Part shown: positions 2,649 through 32,000 of the stretch, one piece after another | How positions within the stretch are numbered: the stretch's first letter is position 1 | Layout: every line of letters starts with the position of its first letter | Assembly (NCBI RefSeq): GCF_000148385.1 | Contig: NC_014537.1 | Span: 1,560,001-1,592,000 of the forward strand | DNA length: 32,000 nucleotides | Direction of reading: 5' to 3' | DNA from: Vulcanisaeta distributa DSM 14429 | GTDB lineage: Archaea; Thermoproteota; Thermoprotei; Thermoproteales; Thermocladiaceae | Program-made: the position numbers and the translations under genes | The notes under the pieces: generated by a model | Seen by the model: the letters and a program-made list of their open reading frames with translations, nothing else | The model's database searches: none | Told to the model about the DNA's origin: nothing

Positions 2649-3581
2649 ATGTCATTTGACAAAGTAGGTAAATCGATAAAGGAGACCAATCAATTAATTA
2701 CTCCGTATTATGAAAACGATGATTATCCAAGAAAAATCATCAGTAAATTATCGAGGCTAAGCACGGGCACCAAGACCATTTTCTGCCGGTGGCTTAAGTA
2801 TGGCTTCATAGAGAGTGTGCAGGCGGAGGTCCTACCAACAGGCACGGTAATAATCACTGACTGGGCCTCTGAGGTTGATTCATTGATTCATGAGCTTATA
2901 AGCAATGGAATAGCACTCCTAAGTAATAATGGCTATGCCGAGATACCCTTAATGATGTCGCTGGCGGACCAGATAGACTTAGGCTTGGTTTGTGATGGTG
3001 ATGATGGTTACTTAATCAGTGATAGCGAGGTAATATACCCAAGTCCGATGATTATGAGAGTTCCGCATTCTAAGGAAATTATTGAGGAGCCCTATGATGA
3101 TTTAACCCGGTCTATGGCATCGGTCATTAGGAGATTTGATTATTACTTGGGTGGTAAGATAGTTCATGTTGGGGTTAATGTTAAGTCCATTGGTATAATG
3201 AACACCATTGTTTTTAGGAATCCGATCGACATCCTCGTGATAACAAATAACCACTCATCAATAGCCCATAAAATACTGGATCCAAGTAGGACCGTTCACA
3301 GAGGCTTATCGGCATTAGAGAGTTACTTAATGGATGGCGTGGACTACGCCGTGCTTATACATAAGTATACTTACTACGAGGTCCATGTAGAGACATTCAA
3401 CAAAATAATGAGTAGGCAGTACATCAGAGATTCAGGCTTTGCGATTGTTCCTAATGAGCTTGATTACATAATATTCCTCAAATGGCCAAGGATGAATTCA
3501 TTAATGATGAGGTCCCAGAGCGTTGCAAGTAGGCATTCATTAATTAATGGCGCGGTTAATTTCATGCTCAATGCCCGTTAA
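2649..3581 (+). CDS. hypothetical protein (orphan, low-GC)
   Basis: The long ORF opens at TTG 2628. The first ATG is at 2649, with an A/T box (GGTTTATTAG) about 30 nt upstream. No motif recognised. Confidence 0.5.
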   Translation: MSFDKVGKSIKETNQLITPYYENDDYPRKIISKLSRLSTGTKTIFCRWLKYGFIESVQAEVLPTGTVIITDWASEVDSLIHELISNGIALLSNNGYAEIPLMMSLADQIDLGLVCDGDDGYLISDSEVIYPSPMIMRVPHSKEIIEEPYDDLTRSMASVIRRFDYYLGGKIVHVGVNVKSIGIMNTIVFRNPIDILVITNNHSSIAHKILDPSRTVHRGLSALESYLMDGVDYAVLIHKYTYYEVHVETFNKIMSRQYIRDSGFAIVPNELDYIIFLKWPRMNSLMMRSQSVASRHSLINGAVNFMLNAR

Positions 3582-3614
3582 GCATTTATTTTACTAGTCA
3601 TTAAGGCTGAGTCA

Positions 3615-3950
3615 ATGTCCCTGGTTTGGGTTTATCATGGTAATGAGTATAGGAGAGTTTCGGACCTAGATCCTAACCAGGTAATGCTAATGATAAATAG
3701 TGGGTGTGATGGTGTTAGTCAATTAATTAATTACGTAATTAATAATGTGCTCCCAGTAAGTAATTATCGGAGTATAACTGCGAGGGTCTATCGAGGCAAT
3801 GATGAGCATTTAGTACACTTTCTAATCAACTTATCGAGTGGTTCCGAGGAAGTTATTATTTTAGTGTCGAGGAATCCAGCTGATACTTTGTTCAATTACT
3901 ATACATCAGCATTATCGGAAAATATTATTGAATGTAATTATGGTAAATAA
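3615..3950 (+). CDS. hypothetical protein (orphan, low-GC)
   Basis: 111-aa ORF 33 nt downstream of the previous gene on the same strand. No motif recognised. Confidence 0.4.
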   Translation: MSLVWVYHGNEYRRVSDLDPNQVMLMINSGCDGVSQLINYVINNVLPVSNYRSITARVYRGNDEHLVHFLINLSSGSEEVIILVSRNPADTLFNYYTSALSENIIECNYGK

Positions 3951-4021: not shown

Positions 4022-5614
4022 ATGGGCATTAAAAGGCAATACTTATTAATAGGTGTGTTATTGAGTATTCTGATGCCAACGGTATCCTATGGGAAGTTCA
4101 CCATAGAAATACCCGTTAGAGTCAAATTGTTCATAGATGGCGAAGAGGTATCCTCAAGCAAGGGCAAGACATTTACCAGGGAGAACCCTGCGCAGTTTGA
4201 CCAAACGATCGCCGTTATTGAGGAGGCCTCCACAGACGACCTTAACAGGGCTGTTGACCTGGCTAGGGAGGTCTTTGATAAGGATAAGTATGGCTGGGTT
4301 ACGAACTATAGGCAGAGGCTTAGGATTTTATATAAAACGGCTGAGATACTTAGGGAGGAGGCCGAGAGGATAGCCGTTACGGTGGCGCTGGAGAATGGAA
4401 TGCCCATTAGGCAGGCTAGGGCCCATGTACTCGCCGCAGCCGAAATTTTCGAATTCTACGCAGGCCTTGCCGATAAGGTCTATGGTGACTCCATCGTACT
4501 CAGCAATGGTAATGTGTCATTGATATTTAAGGAGCCTGTTGGGGTAGTTGCTGCCGTATCGCCATGGAACTTCCCGATGACTCAGGCGGCTAGGAAGATA
4601 GCGCCCGCCTTGGCTGCGGGCTGCACGGTGGTTTGGAAGCCAGCCAGTTACACACCTATGAGTGCCATGGAGATTTACAGAGCATTGGCTAAGGCTGGTC
4701 TTCCCAAGGGCGTTGTTAATGTAATCTATGGGCCTGGAGCCACTGTTGGTAATGAGTTGGTTAGGCACCCAAGGATTGATTACGTCAGCTTTACTGGAGA
4801 GACCACGACAGGTAAATTAATCATGCAGCAGGCGGCGGCCAGTATTAAGAGGATTGGGCTTGAGCTCGGTGGTAAGAACCCAGGTATTGTGTTTGATGAT
4901 GCAAGTATTGAGGAGGCCGTTAGGGCTATTGTGTTTGGCGGTCTCAGGAATACCGGACAGGCCTGCGGCGCCATTAGTAGGGTATTGGTTCATGAGAGCG
5001 TGCATGAGAAGCTAGTCAATAGGTTGGCCGAGGTTGCTAAGGGCTTAGTCATTGGTTATCCACTTGATGATAACACGGACATGGGGCCACTCGTGTCCAA
5101 GGCCCAGGAGGAGAAGGTGCTTGGCTACATAGACTTCGGTAAGAAGGCTGGGTTCAAGGTGGCGCTTGACGGAGGTAAACTAAGCGGTGGCATATATGAC
5201 AAGGGATACTTCGTGAGTCCCGTGATCTTTGACGATGTTGATCCAAAGAGTAGACTTGCCCAGGAGGAGATATTTGGGCCGGTCATAGCAGTCATACCAT
5301 TTAAGACCGAGCAGGAGGCCATCGAGATAGCGAATAACGTGATTTACGGACTCACAGCATCCATATTCACCAAAGACCCAGCAAGGGCCCTAAGGGTGGC
5401 CAGGAAGCTCCAGGCAGGCACAGTATGGATTAACGACGCCTACACACAACCAACAGAAGGCATCTGGGGCGGCTATAAGCAGTCAGGCATTGGACGTGAA
5501 CTAGGCCTATACGGCCTTGAGGAATTCCTAGAGATCAAGCAGGTCTACGTAGACACCACGGGCAGCCTTGATAGGCCGCACTGGAGGACCGTGATGAAGA
5601 TTGATAAGCTATGA
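4022..5614 (+). CDS. NAD(P)+-dependent aldehyde dehydrogenase (ALDH superfamily)
   Basis: Contains KLFIDGEEV...F.RENP, SPWNFP, the catalytic Glu motif LELGGKNP, the catalytic Cys motif NTGQACGAISR, and EEIFGPV. An alternative in-frame start at ATG 4073 would remove a hydrophobic 17-aa N-terminal extension. Confidence 0.95.
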   Translation: MGIKRQYLLIGVLLSILMPTVSYGKFTIEIPVRVKLFIDGEEVSSSKGKTFTRENPAQFDQTIAVIEEASTDDLNRAVDLAREVFDKDKYGWVTNYRQRLRILYKTAEILREEAERIAVTVALENGMPIRQARAHVLAAAEIFEFYAGLADKVYGDSIVLSNGNVSLIFKEPVGVVAAVSPWNFPMTQAARKIAPALAAGCTVVWKPASYTPMSAMEIYRALAKAGLPKGVVNVIYGPGATVGNELVRHPRIDYVSFTGETTTGKLIMQQAAASIKRIGLELGGKNPGIVFDDASIEEAVRAIVFGGLRNTGQACGAISRVLVHESVHEKLVNRLAEVAKGLVIGYPLDDNTDMGPLVSKAQEEKVLGYIDFGKKAGFKVALDGGKLSGGIYDKGYFVSPVIFDDVDPKSRLAQEEIFGPVIAVIPFKTEQEAIEIANNVIYGLTASIFTKDPARALRVARKLQAGTVWINDAYTQPTEGIWGGYKQSGIGRELGLYGLEEFLEIKQVYVDTTGSLDRPHWRTVMKIDKL

Positions 5615-8103: not shown

Positions 8104-8775
<672 letters not shown>

Positions 8776-22601: not shown

Positions 22602-23585
22602 TTACACTCTCATCTGCTTAATGTCTGGGAAGTCATCTTCAAAGTACTCATGCTCACCCCTAATACCCTTGCTTCTCTTCTCACGTTCAAGGCCCCTAAG
22701 TTCAACACGCCTGATCTTACCGCTGATTGTCTTAGGTAGTTCAGGCACGAACTCAATAGCTCTGGGCCTCTTATACGGCGCTATGTTAAGCCTAATGAAC
22801 TTGAATATGTCATGGGCCAAATCCTTACTTGGTGTGTAGCCTGGCTTAAGGACAATGTACGCCTTTGGTATAAAGCCCCTTATCGGGTCTGGGCTTGGGA
22901 CCACGGCAGCCTCAGCAACGGCCGGGTGCTTCAATAAGTCACTCTCCAGTTCAAACGGGCTAATCCTATAGTCGCTTGACTTGAATACGTCGTCCGCACG
23001 GCCAACGAAGTATAGGTAACCCTCCTCATCCATGAAAGCCACATCACCCGTGAAGTACAGGCCGAGCCTAAACACCTCCCTATTCTTATTTTCATCATCA
23101 TAACCAACCATTAGGCCAATCGGCCTTGGGCTAGTCCTAACGGTTATGTGCCCATCCTTATTAATACCCACGGGATTCCCATCCTCATCAACGAGGACTA
23201 CGTCATAGCCAGGGGCTGGTTTACCCATTGAGCCAGGCTTAATCTTCATGCCGGGGAAGTTACCAACCATGAGCGTGGTCTCCGTCTGCCCATAGCCATC
23301 ACGTATGTACTTACCCGTGGCCTTGTAGACACGCTCAATTACCTCTGGATTAAGCGGCTCGCCGGCGCTCACGAAGCTCTTAATCTTCTCTAAGTTATAC
23401 TTCGTTAAGTCCTCGAGAATTATCATACGCCAAACAGTTGGTGGCGCACATAGTGTGTCAACACCGTAATTCTCAAGAATCTTCAAATGATTAGCCGCAC
23501 TAAACCTACCACTATAGTCATAAACCACGGTAGTGGCACCAGCATTGAAGGCTGCGAAGAATGTCGACCAAGCCCACTTAGCCCG
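22602..23585 (-). pseudogene. C-terminal fragment of an AMP-forming (medium-chain/acetyl-type) acyl-CoA synthetase; no start codon of its own
   Basis: In-frame homology begins at (R)AKWAWSTFFAAFNAGATTVVYDYSGRF and continues through CAPPTVWR, GYGQTET, YFTGD, GRADDV and PKTISGKIRRVELR (ANL-family core motifs). Confidence 0.85.
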
Positions 23586-23591
23586 AGAATG
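23583..23591. repeat. 9-bp direct repeat CCGAGAATG (copy 1) at the lower junction of the insertion
   Basis: An identical 9-mer occurs at 25324..25332. The two copies bracket the inserted segment. Confidence 0.8.
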
Positions 23592-23598
23592 TGAGGTT

Positions 23599-25065
23599 TT
23601 AGGCCCATGGGCCCTGGGCGGGGCAATTTAGCCTCCTCATTGCCTTGGTTGCTTCTTCGCGCATTCTTTTAAGCACTTCGCAGACTTTAATGACCAGCTC
23701 TGGGTATTTCTTAATTGTACTCATGTTCATGTAGACTACGAACTTCTTGCCCTGCTTACTTAATTCGGCTTCGTAATTAGCACCTCGAAGTTTTTCCCAA
23801 ATTGCCTTAGCATCCTCGAAACTCTTACGGTTAGTCCTTAACTCCACTGAGCCGTCTTGTCTCACGTGGACGTTCATTGATATGCTATCAATTATACTAA
23901 TTGACCATCTGCCTTTTTGCTTGACTCTTATATTTGCTAGCATTATTAAATTCCTTAATTTTTCCCCATCCGGCAAAGCGCTTAAATCCTTGATTATAGT
24001 TGCAACTTCTTGGTTATTGAGCCATCTCTGAGCAAGGGCTACGGCCTTGAAGGACCTAATTTCGAAAACTTTCACGTCTTTTTTATCGTCTTCGTCAAAT
24101 CCGCATTCCCTTAACCTTTTAGTTATATTACCCCACGTCTCATATTTCGAATCGCCTATTGTAAGTCTGACTCTCCTTTTTTCAATATCGATATTGCCGT
24201 CTCCGAAAACGGCGGCCAATAAAAAGATTAGAAAGTCTTTCTCATTCATATTGAGAATCTTCCTAACAATCTTAATCTTATCTTTGACTTTATTGTTAAT
24301 GGAAACTAAGCATAATTTAACTTTAATATCATTGTTAATATTTACGTTATCTATATGTATATATACTTTATTTGACCATGCTAGCGCCCAAATAATTGAT
24401 TGCCAGAGATAAACTGTACTCATTTCTGGACGGTTTTGGATAACTGATCCATCTGTTAGTAACAGACCGTATCTTATTGCTTTGGATATGTTATTTTTCA
24501 GCGTGTTAGGCGTAATAACGTGTATACCTTTTAGTTTCTTTAATGCTATAGCCATTGTTATACCCTTCTCCTTAGCCATTTTGTGCATCCTGATTGTTAA
24601 ATGTTCCGTATATATGTATATTATAAACGATTCATTCTCGTTAAATGGCTCGCCTCGCATGATTATTGTTGCCTCACCTCTCCTTAACTTTTCAATCAAT
24701 TCCTCAAGCTCTCTTCGATAAGTCCTCAGCCACTTTTCTCGTGCTTGCCTCACGAGCTCAATCATCTTCTTGGCTGCCTCGATCATTGCCTTCCTCAGTT
24801 CGGCGATGGTTGGGTCATTGTTCTCCTTGGCCTTCTCCTCCATGCTCGTTAGCCAAGTATCTAGTTCGTTGATTGTTTTATCGAACGGCGTTACCGACTC
24901 ACTTAATAGCACGCCTTTGTGCTTCTCCACCCTCCTAAGGAACTCATTGATTAACTTCATTACTTCCTCGATTGTTTTTGGGTCGTTGACGGACTCACCG
25001 CATTGAAGCCGCTTATTACCCCTTACCTTCACGCCCCAGCAAATCCTCAAGCCGTTAAGAGCCAT
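23599..25065 (-). CDS. double-LAGLIDADG-like homing-endonuclease-family protein with long N- and C-terminal extensions
   Basis: Two dodecapeptide-like motifs lie about 85 aa apart: AIRYGLLLTDGSV and FLIFLLAAVFGDGNI. The region after motif 2 (RVRLTIGDS...ALAQRWLNN) resembles the I-DmoI C-terminal half (RLRIWNKNK...IVSRWLNN) as I remember it. The N-terminal ~190 aa is helical and charged, with a conserved CWGVKV.G.KR..CGE.VNDP start. Confidence 0.78.
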   Translation of the reverse strand: MALNGLRICWGVKVRGNKRLQCGESVNDPKTIEEVMKLINEFLRRVEKHKGVLLSESVTPFDKTINELDTWLTSMEEKAKENNDPTIAELRKAMIEAAKKMIELVRQAREKWLRTYRRELEELIEKLRRGEATIIMRGEPFNENESFIIYIYTEHLTIRMHKMAKEKGITMAIALKKLKGIHVITPNTLKNNISKAIRYGLLLTDGSVIQNRPEMSTVYLWQSIIWALAWSNKVYIHIDNVNINNDIKVKLCLVSINNKVKDKIKIVRKILNMNEKDFLIFLLAAVFGDGNIDIEKRRVRLTIGDSKYETWGNITKRLRECGFDEDDKKDVKVFEIRSFKAVALAQRWLNNQEVATIIKDLSALPDGEKLRNLIMLANIRVKQKGRWSISIIDSISMNVHVRQDGSVELRTNRKSFEDAKAIWEKLRGANYEAELSKQGKKFVVYMNMSTIKKYPELVIKVCEVLKRMREEATKAMRRLNCPAQGPWA

Positions 25066-25148
25066 GGTACATCCATGGGACTAATCCCAACAAGGCTAAT
25101 AAGTCACTACCGACCCAGTGCTGAATTGAGTTAAGCACATAATTGAAA
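25066..25148 (-). repeat. 83-nt conserved leader immediately upstream of the LAGLIDADG-type ORF (copy 1)
   Basis: In element orientation it aligns by hand, with two single-nt indels, to 31405..31487 at roughly three quarters identity. It starts TTTCAATTAT and ends ATGGATGT(A/T)(C/T)C before the ATG. Confidence 0.7.
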
Positions 25149-25323
25149 GAAACCAAGCACCTAAGGGCGTAAGGTCATGCACGGAGCACAACCAATCCAC
25201 AGTCAGCACCCACATAAGCAATAAACTAAAAGCAGCAAGGCAAAAACAAAATGTAATAAATCGTGAGGATAATGAGGGGAAAATACCTTCTTATTTATTG
25301 ATTTTCACGAACCACTGAGATAA

Positions 25324-25332
25324 CCGAGAATG
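25324..25332. repeat. 9-bp direct repeat CCGAGAATG (copy 2) at the upper junction of the insertion
   Basis: Identical to 23583..23591. Confidence 0.8.
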
Positions 25333-26099
25333 CCAGGGCTTGAGATGTTCATGTGTCTATAACCGGGCTTGGCACCCACCCAGTACATCGTTGTTAGGTG
25401 GCCGATTGGGTAGCTTGAGTGGGTGTGCATTACCATCTTCGGCTTAGCCGTCGTACCAGACGTGAAATAGACAAGTAACAATTCATCGGTTTTAGTCCTA
25501 ACTCCCTGGAAGTTCTCAGACTTACCACTCGTTAATTCGTAATAGTCGAGCCAACCAGGGCCTGGCTTACCGAGGGTTATGAAATACTTAACACCAAGCT
25601 TCTCAAGCCTATCCCTAACCTGGTTAATCTTGTTAACAACCTCTGGGTCGGCGATTATTGCCTTGAAGTGCGCCCTCGCAGCCCTATCCTCAATATCCGC
25701 CGGTAATAACAGTGTGGTGGCTGGCGCAATCACGGCGCCCATCTTCATGAGCGCCAGGAAGGTCTCAAAGAGCTCAGGTCTGTTGTTGAGCATCACCATG
25801 ACGACATCTCCACGGCCAATGCCCAGCTCGGTGAGTGCGTTGGCTAGTCTGTTAGATCTGGCCCTAAGCTCGGGGTAACTAAAGATCCTGGAATCACCGG
25901 TCTTAAATAGCTCATCATTTATGTATACGAGGGCGGGGTTTGTGGCTGTCTCTGCAAGATGCTTATCGAAGTAATCCACAGCCCAATTAAACTCGCCAGG
26001 CGGTGGCCACCGGAAGTTCGCCTTAGCCTCCTCATAACTACCCGCATTTAAGAGCATGTTTCTCTGTTTAAGGAACTCGTCAAGAACTACGCTAGCCAT
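25332..26099 (-). pseudogene. N-terminal fragment of the AMP-forming acyl-CoA synthetase
   Basis: 256 codons with the P-loop-like motif YFTSGTTAKPKMV, ending ...HMNISSPG. The reading frame then runs 8 codons (ILGYLSGS) into the insertion and stops at 25305. An A/T box lies upstream of ATG 26099. Confidence 0.85.
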
Positions 26100-27245: not shown

Positions 27246-29159
27246 ATGAATTGGAGAATAGTCTTCCTAATCCTTGGAATCGCATTATTAATTATTGGCG
27301 CACTGGTAATCGTGCTGTCAATAACTCAACGGCAGGTCGTAATTCAGATACCGGCGAATTCATCATCACCCGCCTACCTATTGCTGAGTAATTGGAGGAA
27401 TCTGAGCATATACGTATCCACTGGCTACCCAATACCAAAACCAGTATTAAATGGCGAATCCTCTAAGCCACCGTCAATCCTCCAGGTATTTTACGGGCAA
27501 TATGGACTACTTAGTATTAATGTGACCATCACGAACTTAGGAAACACCAGTGAAGCCTACCTAGCGCTCAACAATACGGTCATTATCAGGGGCAGTAATG
27601 GCGAGGTGTCGGTATTCATACCACCAAACTACACAACCATAGCCATTATTACCAGGTCGAGAAACCCACTGGCCATTGAGGTATTTATACCGGCTTCTTA
27701 CATGTACCAGGTAATTAATGCTACATTCGTGATCATAAAATCACCGCTTACAATCAGTATATACTCAGGTAGTGGGATTACGGTAAGCAATGTGGATGGG
27801 TGGACCGTGCTCAGTATTAGTGGTAACTACACATACGTGGTTCTAAACCTCGGTGGTACATCGATAATTCCAATTAATGAATTAATGAATATCAACAATA
27901 ACGAGGTCAGTAATTGGCTGGGGTTGGCGAGGAAGCCCAGGTTAAGTGGTGCACTGCTCACTGAGTACTACCTGAGCCTCCTACTGCTTATGGACGACCA
28001 AAACCCAGTCACTGGGGAATTCGCCGCATCACCGGAGCCCGTGTACTTTTATACCTGGGTTAGGGATTCATCATTCGCAGCCATGGCACTGCAGGCAGCC
28101 GGTTATTACGGACCAGCAATGAAGTACTGGTTATGGATGTGCAACGCCCAAAACTCAAGCGGCACTTGGTACACGCGTTACAACTTCTGGTACGGAACAC
28201 TGGACAAGACCTTCGGCATTCCTGAGTATGACGGTATTGGGCTGTTCCAAATCGGTGTTTGGCAGTTTTATGAGTATACGCACAATAAGTCATTCCTACT
28301 GGCGGTGCTACCCTGCATCAATAAGTCCCTAGGTTGGGAGTTAGAGAGCATTGAGGAGAATGATGGTTTAATACCTAAGGACCTAAGCATTTGGGAGGGC
28401 AATTACGCCTATAACTTCTGGACGCAGGCAATTGATGACCTAGGCCTATACGCCTCAGCACAGATATATAGGGTATTGGGTCTTAACAACACGGAGATAC
28501 TTAGGGCCGCCAATGAATTAAACGCCACAATACAGAGGTACTTCTACACTGGCAAGTTCTATTCACAGGCAATCACGAGCACCGTGGTATACACAAGCGG
28601 CGGTTCGCAGGTGACCTACGTACCTAATGGAATACCCGACTCATCAGTAATCCTACCCATAGCCATGGGACTGGTAAACCCACGTGGTGTTAGGGCTGTA
28701 AGCACGGTCGAAACCATAACACGTGTATTGACGGTTAATGGAGGGTTAGCGAGGTTCCCAGGCGATGATTATCACTACGATTCAAGCCTTTATGACAGTA
28801 CGGCGCCAGACCCACCATGGTTGATAACCACGTTATTCCTGGCCATGTACTATGATGATGTTGGAAACTACACGGGTGTGTACAATATATTGGCATGGTG
28901 TATTGAACATTCGCAACATGGCCTATTGCCTGAGGCAATTGACCCAAGACTTGGCTATCCACTACCTACGACATCCCCATTAACTTGGTCGGCCGCGATG
29001 TACGTGCTCACGGCCCTCAATTATAGGCCACAGCATAAGCCCGTGATCACGACTATGGTCTTGGTGGCCGTGGTAATAATTTTACTCGCCATAGTGATGT
29101 TCGCGGTCTATGGCAGGGCCGGCCCTAGACAAGCCTTATGGTCTCGCCATTATTCATGA
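27246..29159 (+). CDS. glycoside hydrolase family 15 (glucoamylase/trehalase-like) with N- and C-terminal membrane anchors
   Basis: The catalytic (alpha/alpha)6 region has the motifs YTWVRDSSFAAMAL, GLFQ, DLSIWEGNYAYNFWTQA, ARFPGDDY and PLTWSAAMYV. There is an N-terminal TM (IVFLILGIALLIIGALVIVL) and a C-terminal TM (MVLVAVVIILLAIVMFAV). Confidence 0.85.
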   Translation: MNWRIVFLILGIALLIIGALVIVLSITQRQVVIQIPANSSSPAYLLLSNWRNLSIYVSTGYPIPKPVLNGESSKPPSILQVFYGQYGLLSINVTITNLGNTSEAYLALNNTVIIRGSNGEVSVFIPPNYTTIAIITRSRNPLAIEVFIPASYMYQVINATFVIIKSPLTISIYSGSGITVSNVDGWTVLSISGNYTYVVLNLGGTSIIPINELMNINNNEVSNWLGLARKPRLSGALLTEYYLSLLLLMDDQNPVTGEFAASPEPVYFYTWVRDSSFAAMALQAAGYYGPAMKYWLWMCNAQNSSGTWYTRYNFWYGTLDKTFGIPEYDGIGLFQIGVWQFYEYTHNKSFLLAVLPCINKSLGWELESIEENDGLIPKDLSIWEGNYAYNFWTQAIDDLGLYASAQIYRVLGLNNTEILRAANELNATIQRYFYTGKFYSQAITSTVVYTSGGSQVTYVPNGIPDSSVILPIAMGLVNPRGVRAVSTVETITRVLTVNGGLARFPGDDYHYDSSLYDSTAPDPPWLITTLFLAMYYDDVGNYTGVYNILAWCIEHSQHGLLPEAIDPRLGYPLPTTSPLTWSAAMYVLTALNYRPQHKPVITTMVLVAVVIILLAIVMFAVYGRAGPRQALWSRHYS

Positions 29160-31056
29160 ACACGGTCGGTATCTTAAGCTGGAGCTCCAGGGTTAGGGCT
29201 AGGTTCATTATCTTACTTGGCTCTCCGTGAACTAGCATTATCTTATGGGGCTTGGGCTCCATATTCCTCACATAATTAATCAATTGCCTCCTATCACTAT
29301 GCCCCGAGAACCCAGGTATTGACTCGACCTTCATCTTAATATCAAGCGTGACCCTATCCGAGTAGTACCTAACCGTTAACTTCCTCTCTCCCTGCTGAAT
29401 CCTCCTACCAATCGTGTTTTCCGCCTGATAAGACACGAAGATCAGCATGTTCCTCTCATCCTCGGCAGCATGCACGAAGTAGTCCATTATTGGGCCTCCA
29501 TTAAGCATGCCGTGCGGAGCCAATATGACGGCTGGCGGCCCCTGGAGTATCTCCATGACTTGCTCCTTACGCTTCTCAGGGTCTCTGGCCCTCTCGATTG
29601 GCTTAACGTACTCGCTCAGGAATGGGTTTACTCCATCATAAATCATCTCCCTAAGCGCTCTGTTTAGGTAGTCCGGGAACATTAGGTGAACGTTCAGCGT
29701 CTCTAGGACCATCCCATCGACGTAAATCGGGATTTTGGGCAATTGCTTATTATTAATGGCTTCATTAAGCACCAGGAGTATTTCCTGGGCCCTACCCGTG
29801 CTAAACACGGGGATTAACACCTTACCCTCATGCTCAACAGTGTGCTTGACTAAGTCAATGAGTTTCTGCTCACTTTCCTGCCTTGGTGGCTGAACATCCT
29901 CCTTACCACCGTAGGTGCTCTCCATAATTAATAGCTCGGCTCTCTTGAACTTGTTATGTGCTGGGTTCAAAAGCCTGGTCGGTCCATACTTCATGTCGCC
30001 AGTGTAAATAATGTTGTAAAGACCATTACCAATGTGTAGGTGTACCACGGCTGAGCCAACCTCATGCCCGCCATCAAATAGCATGAGCTTTGTGTCCGGG
30101 GATATGTCCGTTGGGTGGTCGGCGTAGTTTAGGGTTATCGTGTGGTAGAGGGCCTGGGCAAGGTCCTGCCTGCTGTAGGGTGGTACCCTACCCTCGGACT
30201 CCGCCTGCTCAATATAGTCAGTGAGTAGTACCTCCATTAAGTACTTAGTGGGCTCCGTCATGTAGACCGGGCCCTTATAACCATACTTGAATAGGTACGG
30301 TACATAGCCAATGTGATCCATGTGCGCGTGGGTTATCACCACGGCATCCAGGGTATCTAGGTCCACCTCATCAAGCAGTGGCGCCTCATCGCCTGAGCTC
30401 GAAGGCTTAACACCGCAGTCAAGTAGTATTGAGCTCTCCTTCGTCCTAACGAGTATGGCGCTCCTACCAACCTCCATCTGAGCGCCCAGCCCTGTAACGG
30501 TTATCCTAGCGTCCTTATACACGGGCTCCCTATGAATCCTCATTCCAAGCCTCCTAAGGAACTCAAGCCTATCCTTGGCTGTGGCTATTTGTATCTGCTT
30601 AACGGCATCTATGTCCGACCTGGGCAATCCAGCGCCCATCTCCAGCGCCGTGGGTATTATCCAGGGCTTCCAACCAGTCTCAGCCAATATCTCCTTCTCC
30701 AACTTACTCCTCTCCCTAACGGGCCTCTTCAAATAAACATACACCTCACCAGTTGGTTCATCAACCACTATGTCATCGATTATATTCGAGCCAACACTCT
30801 TCGTAACCATGTCTGTAATGACCCTCTTCAACTTATCAACCTCCTTAATCCTAACCTTCGGATCACCCCTAATGATTATGTACTTCTTCAACTCCTTAGC
30901 GAGGGTCTTTATATACTCGCTATGCTCCATCACGTACCTTGGGTTCATCACGTAAATGATTACGTTGGGGCCCTCAAAGTCCACCCTAGAAAACTTGGCT
31001 TCGGGCGGTAGGATCTCCATAATCTTCTTCTCCATCTCCTCCTTCAAGGATGCCAT
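29125..31056 (-). CDS. aCPSF1-type KH-domain / metallo-beta-lactamase / beta-CASP ribonuclease
   Basis: N-terminal KH-like repeats are followed by the HxHxDH motif (ITHAHMDHIG) and the beta-CASP region through to LVHGEP. I chose ATG 31056 (MASLKEEMEKK...). The TTG extension to 31149 looks spurious. The 3' end overlaps the convergent GH15 gene by 35 nt. Confidence 0.92.
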   Translation of the reverse strand: MASLKEEMEKKIMEILPPEAKFSRVDFEGPNVIIYVMNPRYVMEHSEYIKTLAKELKKYIIIRGDPKVRIKEVDKLKRVITDMVTKSVGSNIIDDIVVDEPTGEVYVYLKRPVRERSKLEKEILAETGWKPWIIPTALEMGAGLPRSDIDAVKQIQIATAKDRLEFLRRLGMRIHREPVYKDARITVTGLGAQMEVGRSAILVRTKESSILLDCGVKPSSSGDEAPLLDEVDLDTLDAVVITHAHMDHIGYVPYLFKYGYKGPVYMTEPTKYLMEVLLTDYIEQAESEGRVPPYSRQDLAQALYHTITLNYADHPTDISPDTKLMLFDGGHEVGSAVVHLHIGNGLYNIIYTGDMKYGPTRLLNPAHNKFKRAELLIMESTYGGKEDVQPPRQESEQKLIDLVKHTVEHEGKVLIPVFSTGRAQEILLVLNEAINNKQLPKIPIYVDGMVLETLNVHLMFPDYLNRALREMIYDGVNPFLSEYVKPIERARDPEKRKEQVMEILQGPPAVILAPHGMLNGGPIMDYFVHAAEDERNMLIFVSYQAENTIGRRIQQGERKLTVRYYSDRVTLDIKMKVESIPGFSGHSDRRQLINYVRNMEPKPHKIMLVHGEPSKIMNLALTLELQLKIPTVFMNNGETIRLV

Positions 31057-31404
31057 ACTCAAAACCTCAAGAACTGAGGAACGAATACCGCAGGCACTTA
31101 AAAAATTATCTCTAAAGGAGCATGGGAAATAACAAGTAGCGCGTTTCAAAAATCCGATAACGAAAACCTAATAAGACAGCAGGCAACGTAAAGAGTACAT
31201 ACAAGACGGGTAGATGCTAGGGCTGATGGTGAGACTGTCTCAACATATTTGCTGAGGTTATGATATTCATTAGGGGTGCGAGCGATAAACTAATGTGTGA
31301 AATTATCCGTTGGACCTATTGTTGATATATTTTTATTCTTTTCATGATATATCGCATATTATTTTGTTTTCCTGGGTTTGTGTTTTGTTCTTTGTTTTAT
31401 TGTT

Positions 31405-31487
31405 TTTCAATTATATACTTAATTAAATTTAGCACTAGATCGATAGTGATTTATTAGTCTTACTGGGGATTAGCTTATGGATGTTTC
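31405..31487 (+). repeat. 83-nt conserved leader upstream of the second LAGLIDADG-family ORF (copy 2)
   Basis: Hand alignment to the reverse complement of 25066..25148. Confidence 0.7.
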
Positions 31488-32000
31488 ATGGCTCTTGAGA
31501 TTGCTAAGCCATTGAGGGTTTGTTGGGGCGTTAAGGTTAAGGGCTCAAAGAGAATTGTGTGCGGTGAGACTGTCAATGATCCAAGGATAATTGAGGAGAC
31601 CATGAAATTGATAGGCGAGTTCTTAACCCGAGTCGAGAAGCACAAAAGTGTACTATTAAGTGGTTTAGCGACGCCGTTTGACGACGTAATCAATGACTTA
31701 AGTAATTGGTTATGGTCGATTAGGGAGAAAATCAAGGGAGGCAATGATGAAAATATCGCAAAGCTAAGGATGGCAATGCTCAAGGTAAGCGAGAAAATGT
31801 TAATGCTCGTGAGGCAAGCTAAGGAAAATTGGCTAAGCATATTCAAACCAGAGCTCGAGGAACTAATCGAGGAGCTAAGGAAGGGAAAAGTTGAGGTAAT
31901 AATAACGGGAGAGCCGTTTAATGAGGATAAGAGCTTCATGGTGCATCTATACACAGGACACCTGGCGATTGGGGTGAGTAGGGTTAGGCGAAGTGTGACT
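31488..32000 (+). CDS. paralogue of the 488-aa LAGLIDADG-type protein; N-terminal 171 codons only, truncated by the window edge
   Basis: My own translation from ATG 31488 is open to nt 32000: MALEIAKPLRVCWGVKVKGSKRIVCGETVNDPRIIEETMKLIGEFLTRVEKHKSVLL...ITGEPFNEDKSFMVHLYTGHL. It is collinear with the N-terminus of the 23599..25065 product and roughly half the residues are identical. It is absent from the ORF track because it has no stop codon in the window. Confidence 0.82.
   Translation, partial: MALEIAKPLRVCWGVKVKGSKRIVCGETVNDPRIIEETMKLIGEFLTRVEKHKSVLLSGLATPFDDVINDLSNWLWSIREKIKGGNDENIAKLRMAMLKVSEKMLMLVRQAKENWLSIFKPELEELIEELRKGKVEVIITGEPFNEDKSFMVHLYTGHLAIGVSRVRRSVT

Follow-up and report, generated by a model that had tools for sequence, protein, structure and literature searches.

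A free-standing gene family of Vulcanisaeta with a predicted LAGLIDADG core and a probable promoter of its own that breaks protein-coding genes

The 32,000-nt stretch of the Vulcanisaeta distributa DSM 14429 genome analyzed here (NC_014537.1, positions 1,560,001 to 1,592,000; hereafter the window) carries two diverged copies of one gene, a complete one (copy 1) and one that runs off the right-hand edge (copy 2). Each is preceded by a conserved block of 83 to 85 nt, which an earlier note on this DNA had described as a leader. According to our analysis, both copies probably belong to a family of free-standing, self-promoted mobile genes resembling homing endonuclease genes, and the "leader" is then mainly promoter and operator DNA.

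Copy 2 is a diverged, full-length, and genuine paralogue of copy 1. As the earlier note had read from the letters, the plus-strand frame starting at ATG 31488 stays open up to the window end, that is, for 171 codons, and its product aligns without gaps to the 488-aa protein of copy 1 (23599-25065, minus strand), with 93 of 158 residues identical (59%; E 2e-67). The frame could be followed further on L019, a contig from a sequencing run of DSM 14429 that is 100% identical to the window across the overlap. There the open reading frame (ORF) runs intact to a stop codon 1,005 nt past the window end and encodes a protein of 505 aa (P0009), so that the quick truncation considered in the note does not occur. 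The minus-strand ORF that covers the same DNA was also correctly taken for an antisense shadow, given that the plus-strand frame holds both the homology and the codon-position pattern. The features of copy 2, together with the corresponding block of copy 1, are as follows.

31176..31349, no strand: stretch of uncertain origin that syntenic relatives lack, within which copy 2 has its left end
31350..31404, plus strand: T/G-rich module of copy 2, homologous to a module of about 90 nt that lies 360-720 nt upstream of the leader in loci L004, L010, and L011
31405..31487, plus strand: conserved upstream block of copy 2 (the "leader"), best read as promoter and control DNA
31433..31448, plus strand: short inverted repeat CACT(N8)AGTG, conserved as sequence, not as a covarying helix
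31450..31457, plus strand: TATA-like box TTTATTAG at -38..-31 from the ATG, with 7 of its 8 bases at least 90% conserved in 13 copies
31477..31484, plus strand: conserved ATGGATGT, predicted transcription-start region, a role suggested by its spacing from the TATA-like box
31475..31954, minus strand: antisense shadow ORF over copy 2, 159 aa, not a gene
31488..32000, plus strand: copy 2 ORF, first 171 codons, corresponding to P0009 and to L019 6001-7518
25066..25150, minus strand: conserved upstream block of copy 1

Three statements of the earlier note about the block, namely that the two leaders align at about three quarters identity, that they are at least as conserved as the coding DNA, and that they travel with the ORF, all held when computed. 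The block at 31405-31487 and the reverse complement of 25066-25150 share 73% identity, with a local score of 78 against 14 ± 2.2 for shuffled sequences, and none of 500 shuffles equaled it. When copy 1 was compared with 18 loci of three other Vulcanisaeta genomes, every paralogue for which upstream sequence was available had the onset of homology at a constant 83-85 nt 5′ of the ATG. A profile of the block found 12 ORF copies at E < 1e-16 and three more weakly, with no occurrence lacking the ORF, and the block is thus common to at least 12 copies across four Vulcanisaeta genomes. Over 21 pairs of intact copies, mean identity was 71% in the block and 65.5% in the coding sequence, the latter being made up of 74% at codon positions 1 and 2 and 49% at position 3, while the next 100 nt upstream of the block fell to 39.5%. 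Block identity was higher than third-position identity in 21/21 pairs. Since the block matches positions 1 and 2 and exceeds position 3, purifying selection acts on it with about the strength seen at amino acid-changing sites. Its conserved sub-blocks are, in order, TTCAAT, GCTTAAG, TTCAGCAC..AGTGA, TTTATTAG, GTTGGG, and ATGGATGT.

As to what this block does, the note had offered a functional RNA or a promoter module, and of the two, the promoter module is the one that fits. Archaeal promoters combine a B recognition element with a TATA box, an A/T-rich box located about 26 nt upstream of the transcription start. Throughout the family, the TTTATTAG box is found 31-38 nt 5′ of the ORF ATG and 20-27 nt 5′ of ATGGATGT, and only about half of the copies have the ATG within ATGGATGT in the ORF frame. 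TATA-like boxes of other genes in the window end 20-24 nt 5′ of the ATG, as for leaderless mRNAs, and the broken AMP-binding gene described below carries TTTATTAAT in the corresponding TATA position. Based on this comparison of TATA spacing with other window genes, transcription would start inside ATGGATGT, and the "leader" would mainly consist of a promoter and about 45 nt of upstream operator or control DNA. Provided that the TATA box is assigned correctly, the ORF transcript would therefore lack most of the block.

The RNA part of the proposal fared differently, and a structured RNA leader, in which the block would be a 5′ untranslated region (UTR) controlling translation or stability, seems very improbable to us. 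Such a leader would account for a conservation that exceeds the needs of a basal promoter, for the 4-bp inverted repeat present in most copies, and for the conserved short upstream ATG. However, RNAalifold run on 13 copies of the block returned no consensus structure (-0.33 kcal/mol) and did not recover the CACT/AGTG hairpin, for which the note had reported a covarying pair. Pairing in this hairpin (83% of cells) equals that of shuffled columns (82.5 ± 2.1; 253 of 500 shuffles equal), the fifth pair is unpaired in 6 of the 13 copies, and a single double change was seen in 65 cells, which leaves no covariation to speak of. Rfam gave no match in the whole window or in the copy 2 region, and the TATA-like box lies inside the block itself.

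The nature of the encoded protein had been missed in the earlier reading: it is predicted to be a LAGLIDADG-core protein. As modeled, the family protein of about 500 aa has a central single-chain double LAGLIDADG nuclease core flanked by extra N- and C-terminal domains. An alignment of 26 paralogues displays two motifs, YGLLLTDGS with an invariant D205 and FLLxAVLGDG with D289 conserved in at least 90% of the sequences. The AlphaFold2 model built on this alignment (pLDDT 89.4) shows a single-chain LAGLIDADG topology at about residues 191-350, and the Foldseek matches listed for it in the PDB include PI-PfuI, the TliVMA intein, E-DreI, I-Tsp061I, I-DmoI, and I-SceI, with target-normalized TM-scores of about 0.5. 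The sole nonenzyme among the matches listed is the N-terminal domain of WhiA, a degenerate LAGLIDADG fold. In I-DmoI, each LAGLIDADG helix carries an acidic residue at its C-terminal end (D20/E117) (PMC3384342); D205 and D289 correspond to these metal-binding residues and are both conserved in the family. Matches in Pfam were below threshold, with LAGLIDADG_3 in 4 of the 26 sequences (best 1.2e-4), LAGLIDADG_WhiA in 5, and LAGLIDADG_2 in 2, and searches of the PDB with phmmer and with a profile gave nothing meaningful, the profile search finding no LAGLIDADG chain. Outside the core, the N-terminal 188 residues are modeled as a beta-sheet with three long helices in a three-helix bundle (pLDDT 86), and an alpha/beta domain is predicted on the C-terminal side. 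The N-terminal part has no match among PDB structures (best E 0.37) and no Hint-like fold, and an intein/Hint origin of this domain, which we considered, is therefore unsupported. Together, the predicted fold and the two acidic residues suggest that the family proteins are nucleases.

Direct evidence of insertion comes from copy 1, which breaks an acyl-CoA synthetase (AMP-binding) gene. From the 5′ to the 3′ end of the broken gene, the features of this site are as follows.

25332..26099, minus strand: acyl-CoA synthetase (AMP-binding), N-terminal half, broken by copy 1
25324..25332, minus strand: left copy of the 9-nt direct repeat CATTCTCGG
25151..25331, minus strand: 5′ part of the copy 1 insert, 181 nt, with no detectable homologue in other copies
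23599..25065, minus strand: copy 1 ORF, 488 aa, with the predicted double LAGLIDADG core at about residues 190-350
23585..23598, minus strand: 3′ tail of copy 1 (AAACCTCACATTCTC), 14 nt, whose homologue in other copies is the conserved tail ..AAAACCACACACCTGG
23583..23591, minus strand: right copy of the 9-nt direct repeat CATTCTCGG
22602..23584, minus strand: acyl-CoA synthetase, C-terminal half

L022, a 13.7-kb metagenome contig, is syntenic with the window (dienelactone hydrolase [DLH], aCPSF1, GH15, EamA, AMP-binding, KaiC-like, and more) and holds an intact 585-aa AMP-binding gene as well as an intact 262-aa DLH gene beside aCPSF1. The AMP-binding orthologues are intact, 583-585 aa long, at 94% identity, and in L022, L023, and L025 the copy 1 site is uninterrupted (ATCTCAAGCCCNGGNTGGGCTAAGTGGGCTTGG and TCAAGCCCNGGNTGGGCTAAGTGGGC). 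Alignment to these empty sites delimits the insertion to 23585-25331, 1,747 bp between AGCCCTGGC and GGGCTAAGTGG, which contain the ORF, the leader, the 181 nt of unmatched 5′ DNA, and the 14-nt tail, and no other ORF. The left end TTATC..TGG, which the note had proposed as possibly shared by the two copies, is at chance level, and the true left junction of copy 1 at 25331 lies 8 nt before TTATC. All three empty sites read GGN TGG GCT, from which it follows that one T (of TGG) was lost at copy 1. The repeat CATTCTCGG sits at both junctions and is absent from the three empty sites, and it is therefore not a target-site duplication. Neither the 9-nt repeat nor the lost base is explained by any standard integration mechanism that we considered.

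Copy 1 does not appear to reside in an intron or an intein: no Rfam intron and no convincing in-frame bulge-helix-bulge (BHB) motif were found at its junctions, stops and a gap of 266 nt lie between its ORF and the host frame, and intein splice-junction residues are missing. We thus give very little credence, less than to any other alternative, to the idea that the copies are archaeal BHB introns with a homing endonuclease, spliced from the mRNA so that the host genes stay functional. This idea draws on the fact that LAGLIDADG genes in Thermoproteales are normally found in rRNA introns (PMC4496867, PMC2602781), on the orientation of the 3/3 copies of DSM 14429 with known flanks, which all read in the direction of the broken host gene, and on one weak BHB-like pairing that splices in frame at 25323/23579. 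It would also suit the undamaged state of the two acyl-CoA synthetase halves, which show no further stops or frameshifts across 582 codons and a dN/dS of 0.026-0.044, compared to 0.041 between intact orthologues. However, dS to the nearest relatives is above 1, which blunts this test, and dN/dS can therefore neither date the insertion nor detect a recent loss of function. Moreover, the best BHB motif is native exon sequence and yields a frameshift, the in-frame candidate consists of only 4+4+1 bp and would turn the conserved Trp-Ala into Ile-Leu-Gly, and one exon base is missing in the DNA. The host gene of copy 2 is short of 153 codons, one copy lies antisense to pdxS, and the element has a promoter-like block of its own.

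At the second site, the earlier note had placed copy 2 in an intergenic region beside aCPSF1, with a left end near 31303. Comparison with L022, in which DLH is intact, revised both points. Homology to the relatives extends to 31175 and picks up again about 100 nt past the ORF stop, at DLH codon 154. The element has therefore taken the place of about 540 nt, among them DLH codons 1-153, which make up the 5′ 60% of the gene. Its left end can be placed only between 31176 and 31350. The DNA at 31176-31349 could be either filler or what is left of the DLH 5′ end after decay; an alignment of 31176-31404 for DLH-derived DNA was nonsignificant, as was each of three short co-linear peptide matches to the DLH N terminus, in three frames. 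A possible target-site duplication at copy 2 (AAAACCTAATAA at 31164-31175 and AAAACCTACTAA in the tail) was rejected because the sequence that follows the second repeat on its right is unlike the native intergenic DNA of L022 and L023.

Further copies are found at other genes. Downstream of another DSM 14429 paralogue lies a 3′ piece of a MoCo-binding oxidoreductase (MoCoBD) gene, and one family copy abuts a truncated pdxS. The family is indeed not tied to one target gene, as had been proposed: copies lie inside or next to AMP-binding, DLH, MoCoBD, and pdxS genes, and others are intergenic. Presence/absence polymorphism was seen at both syntenic sites of the window, three relatives being empty at the copy 1 site and one having an intact DLH at the copy 2 site. 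Given these empty sites and the broken AMP-binding, DLH, MoCoBD, and pdxS genes, the family is mobile on evolutionary timescales and disrupts genes. As a separate observation, the aCPSF1/DLH locus of metagenome-assembled genome GCA_049966235 (L023), syntenic with window positions of about 31150-31400, has at 4180-4295 a 116-nt remnant of the family ORF 3′ end (E 1.8e-11). This remnant lies between aCPSF1 and a 49-aa DLH fragment in the orientation opposite to copy 2, which means that the locus was hit or rearranged in a second lineage.

The following mechanism would bring these results together. The gene would stand alone, in neither an intron nor an intein, and would bring its own expression signals. 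Within the conserved block, the TATA-like TTTATTAG would drive transcription from the invariant ATGGATGT, a few nucleotides before the ATG, and the 45 nt or so upstream of the box would serve as operator or regulatory DNA and not as an RNA leader. The unit would behave as selfish mobile DNA that some strains carry and that syntenic relatives lack at the corresponding site, and would land inside protein-coding genes, thereby breaking them. The encoded nuclease would cut a specific site, and repair would then copy the gene in, through accurate homing between strains or through error-prone ectopic repair. As the insert encodes only the LAGLIDADG protein, nuclease-triggered repair is the simplest driver; the nuclease is most likely what drives movement, and we infer that the mode of movement is repair based.

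The searches point to a multicopy gene family found only in Vulcanisaeta. All 26 close proteins are from this genus, and we found 18 loci in the three further genomes, many of them at contig ends. An exhaustive profile search gave 197 cluster representatives, of which all those with a name are from Vulcanisaeta. Several copies occur in each of the four genomes sampled, the superfamily adds more distant ones, and two paralogues (P0004 and P0005) have no contig placement. Viral, phage, and plasmid collections and defense and phage protein libraries (PHROGs, PADLOC) held no relatives. Members are annotated only as hypothetical, with no Pfam or NCBIfam assignment, and a literature search found no paper on the family. 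Frameshifts are present in copies from JCM draft genomes; these may be homopolymer sequencing errors and were not counted as decay. Distant paralogues with about 28% identity and the motif LFGGILGDGTV occur at about 1570-2040 of L012 (minus strand), downstream of the L012 family copy, which itself adjoins the 3′ end of a tRNA gene, and at 4001-4704 of L018.

We also examined the DNA further upstream, where the earlier note had seen a T/G-rich tract in both copies. The tract of copy 2 is real, and its homologue is a module of other copies; the likeness between copies 1 and 2 did not reach significance. The copy 2 tract scored 35-38 against the modules of L004, L010, and L011, compared to about 20 ± 3 for shuffled sequences (0-5 of 1000 equal), whereas the tracts of copies 1 and 2 scored 21 against each other, compared to 18.5 ± 2.7 (82 of 500 shuffles equal). 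With blastn, the upstream regions of copies 1 and 2 matched no other locus. The module (GTATATTGTTTTCTG..CCCTGGGTTTGGG..TTTGTTCTGTGGGTTGGGGGGGC) is located at 85-177 in L004, 3184-3278 in L010, 3445-3537 in L011, and 31350-31404 in the window, and is 77-87% conserved between copies in different genomes. At the other end, the 3′ tail of the family is conserved and ends in CCTGG. The module bears a loose resemblance to the reverse complement of this 3′ end, a few pairs reaching z 4.7-6.7, and could represent a terminal inverted repeat in degenerate form. When 12 true 3′ ends were combined into a profile, the opposite strand gave no T/G module at E<10. Only empty-site comparisons define where the element physically ends.

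Between module and leader, some copies carry a small divergent gene on the opposite strand (L004 283-577, L016 about 3621-3914, L009 about 3545-3911, L014 3479-3878), which had no family match. In L004 it encodes 81 aa (MNMDCEGDYYLEVLDKEVKVIKQVKPMSNDLLKPRYKLTYVIVSESPKTVKVRYACGDEVDEQEVTLSKTMRYMIELLRDS), and its counterpart in L014 follows a CxC...CxH (SWIM-like) stretch whose frame starts inside the first conserved block of the leader. Remnants of this gene are present in L001, L011, and L018, and both window copies lack it. At the equivalent place in L010 (3340-3660, minus strand), we observed instead a 106-aa fragment of a P-loop ATPase (STAND/AAA-like), so that the region upstream of the leader differs from copy to copy in a mosaic fashion.

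These upstream features raise the question of whether the family is transposon-like, that is, an IS-like element with degenerate terminal inverted repeats, in which the left-hand T/G-rich module would mirror, as reverse complement, the 3′ end and tail on the right, and sometimes a small divergent partner gene, moving to many sites by cut-or-copy transposition with the LAGLIDADG protein as an unorthodox transposase or mobilized in trans. We regard this as unlikely. It could explain why a module of about 90 nt is conserved upstream in four copies, why some pairs of module and reverse-complemented 3′ end score well, and why a 9-nt direct repeat lies exactly at both copy 1 junctions, and it would accord with the conserved 3′ tail, the many and varied insertion contexts, and the partner gene of about 81 aa in four loci. 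Yet the profile of 3′ ends misses every T/G module, the 9-nt repeat is missing from the three empty sites and is thus no target-site duplication, and no known transposase family was matched in Pfam, NCBIfam, PHROGs, or PADLOC. Near-identical copies within a genome are also absent, and the small gene is missing from both window copies. A related and more far-reaching suggestion, which we put forward tentatively and with more doubt than belief, is that the family represents an undescribed archaeal mobile element: an autonomous, self-promoted cassette with a large LAGLIDADG protein as its only enzyme, an inverted terminal module, a conserved control region and 3′ terminus, and sometimes a small partner gene. 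This would amount to a LAGLIDADG-driven transposon that enters many different protein-coding genes with no intron or intein to shelter it.

The proteins could also be domesticated regulators, an expanded set of WhiA-type host DNA-binding proteins that bind their own upstream block, the gene breaks being incidental. The presence of WhiA among the structural matches and the weak LAGLIDADG_WhiA matches of five paralogues speak for such regulators, and so does the strong conservation of the approximately 45 nt upstream of the TATA-like box, which, with a palindrome and an inverted repeat, look operator-like. The paralogues are also old, and their ORFs are under purifying selection. Still, both metal-binding aspartates are conserved, unlike in WhiA (PMC3384342), the family is confined to one genus, and many of its copies are fragmented or at contig ends. 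Together with the presence/absence at two loci between syntenic relatives and the precise disruption of coding sequences, this makes a regulatory role quite unlikely.

Several observations weigh against a free-standing, self-promoted homing endonuclease-like gene, which nevertheless remains our preferred explanation. No Pfam, NCBIfam, or PDB sequence match reached a curated threshold, so that the LAGLIDADG assignment rests on predicted structure and motifs, and copy 1 is without the lysine found in the first beta-hairpin loop of most paralogues. The promoter and start-site assignments are made by analogy only. The junctions of copy 1, with one target base lost and a 9-nt repeat that is not a duplication, are unlike those of clean homing, and copy 2 is accompanied by a deletion of about 540 nt. 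Finally, paralogues within a genome are old, at about 45-60% amino acid identity with saturated third positions; there is thus no sign of a recent burst, and the sharp edges of homology may mark the end of selection and not that of the element.

Known LAGLIDADG enzymes reside in introns or inteins or, in a few cases, are domesticated host proteins, and the spread of selfish ones is usually tolerated because splicing hides the insertion. Among these, the archaeal intron enzymes (I-DmoI, I-Tsp061I, and I-Vdi141I, as in the rRNA introns of Vulcanisaeta) share with the family a single-chain double LAGLIDADG fold with an acidic residue per helix end, and they likewise are selfish, belong to the same archaeal order, and show presence/absence polymorphism (PMC2602781, PMC4496867). 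They are, however, of about 170-200 aa, lie inside rRNA introns, and depend on host transcription and splicing, whereas the Vulcanisaeta proteins are of about 500 aa with large extra domains, come with their own promoter block, and break protein-coding genes. No sequence-level match to these enzymes was found by phmmer or profile search of the PDB. The intein endonucleases PI-PfuI and TliVMA are the top structural matches and are similar in being large multidomain proteins around a LAGLIDADG core. The yeast HO gene is a free-standing gene derived from an intein LAGLIDADG endonuclease (PMC3384342). In contrast to inteins, the Vulcanisaeta family has no Hint-like N-terminal fold and no splice-junction residues, and its ORF is out of the host frame.

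Spread without an intron or intein is familiar from the free-standing homing endonucleases of phages (seg/mob of T4-like phages), which have their own expression signals and move between related genomes by "intronless homing." Their products are GIY-YIG or HNH enzymes that cut close to the site of their own gene but not within it, and the genes themselves occupy intergenic positions. The Vulcanisaeta family differs in having a LAGLIDADG core, in being chromosomal in an archaeon, and in lying inside genes. WhiA/DUF199 is a domesticated LAGLIDADG regulator that acts on its own promoter and has lost both catalytic acidic residues (PMC3384342). It resembles the family in joining a LAGLIDADG core to an extra C-terminal domain, and its self-regulation offers a model for operator-like DNA (PMC3384342); it is a single-copy bacterial gene, whereas the Vulcanisaeta family is multicopy and mobile with both aspartates conserved. 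The family shares the LAGLIDADG fold and the catalytic residues with known systems. What appears to be new is a family of about 500 aa with a LAGLIDADG core, in one genus of hyperthermophilic archaea, that is free-standing and self-promoted and that breaks host genes without the shelter of splicing.

If the proteins are active, they would be a new source of thermostable nucleases with long sites and unusual accessory domains, as well as a test case for the survival of homing endonuclease genes without a splicing host, and the 85-nt block would provide a compact, portable crenarchaeal promoter and operator. For annotation, the family explains split or truncated genes of Vulcanisaeta, namely those for acyl-CoA synthetase, dienelactone hydrolase, MoCo-binding oxidoreductase, and pdxS.

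Two minor observations were made next to copy 2. About 830 nt 3′ of it, beyond the window, L019 contains at 8320-8454 a tRNA-like sequence with an apparent intervening sequence, which ends at the contig edge and gave no call by ARAGORN or Rfam. On its other side, the aCPSF1/FttA ORF (29125-31149, minus strand) has a mechanical start at TTG 31149, and public contigs and the alignment of relatives point to ATG 31056 and a protein of 643 aa. Given the TATA-like TTTTTTAAG about 40-48 nt 5′ of this ATG, aCPSF1 probably has a short 5′ UTR.

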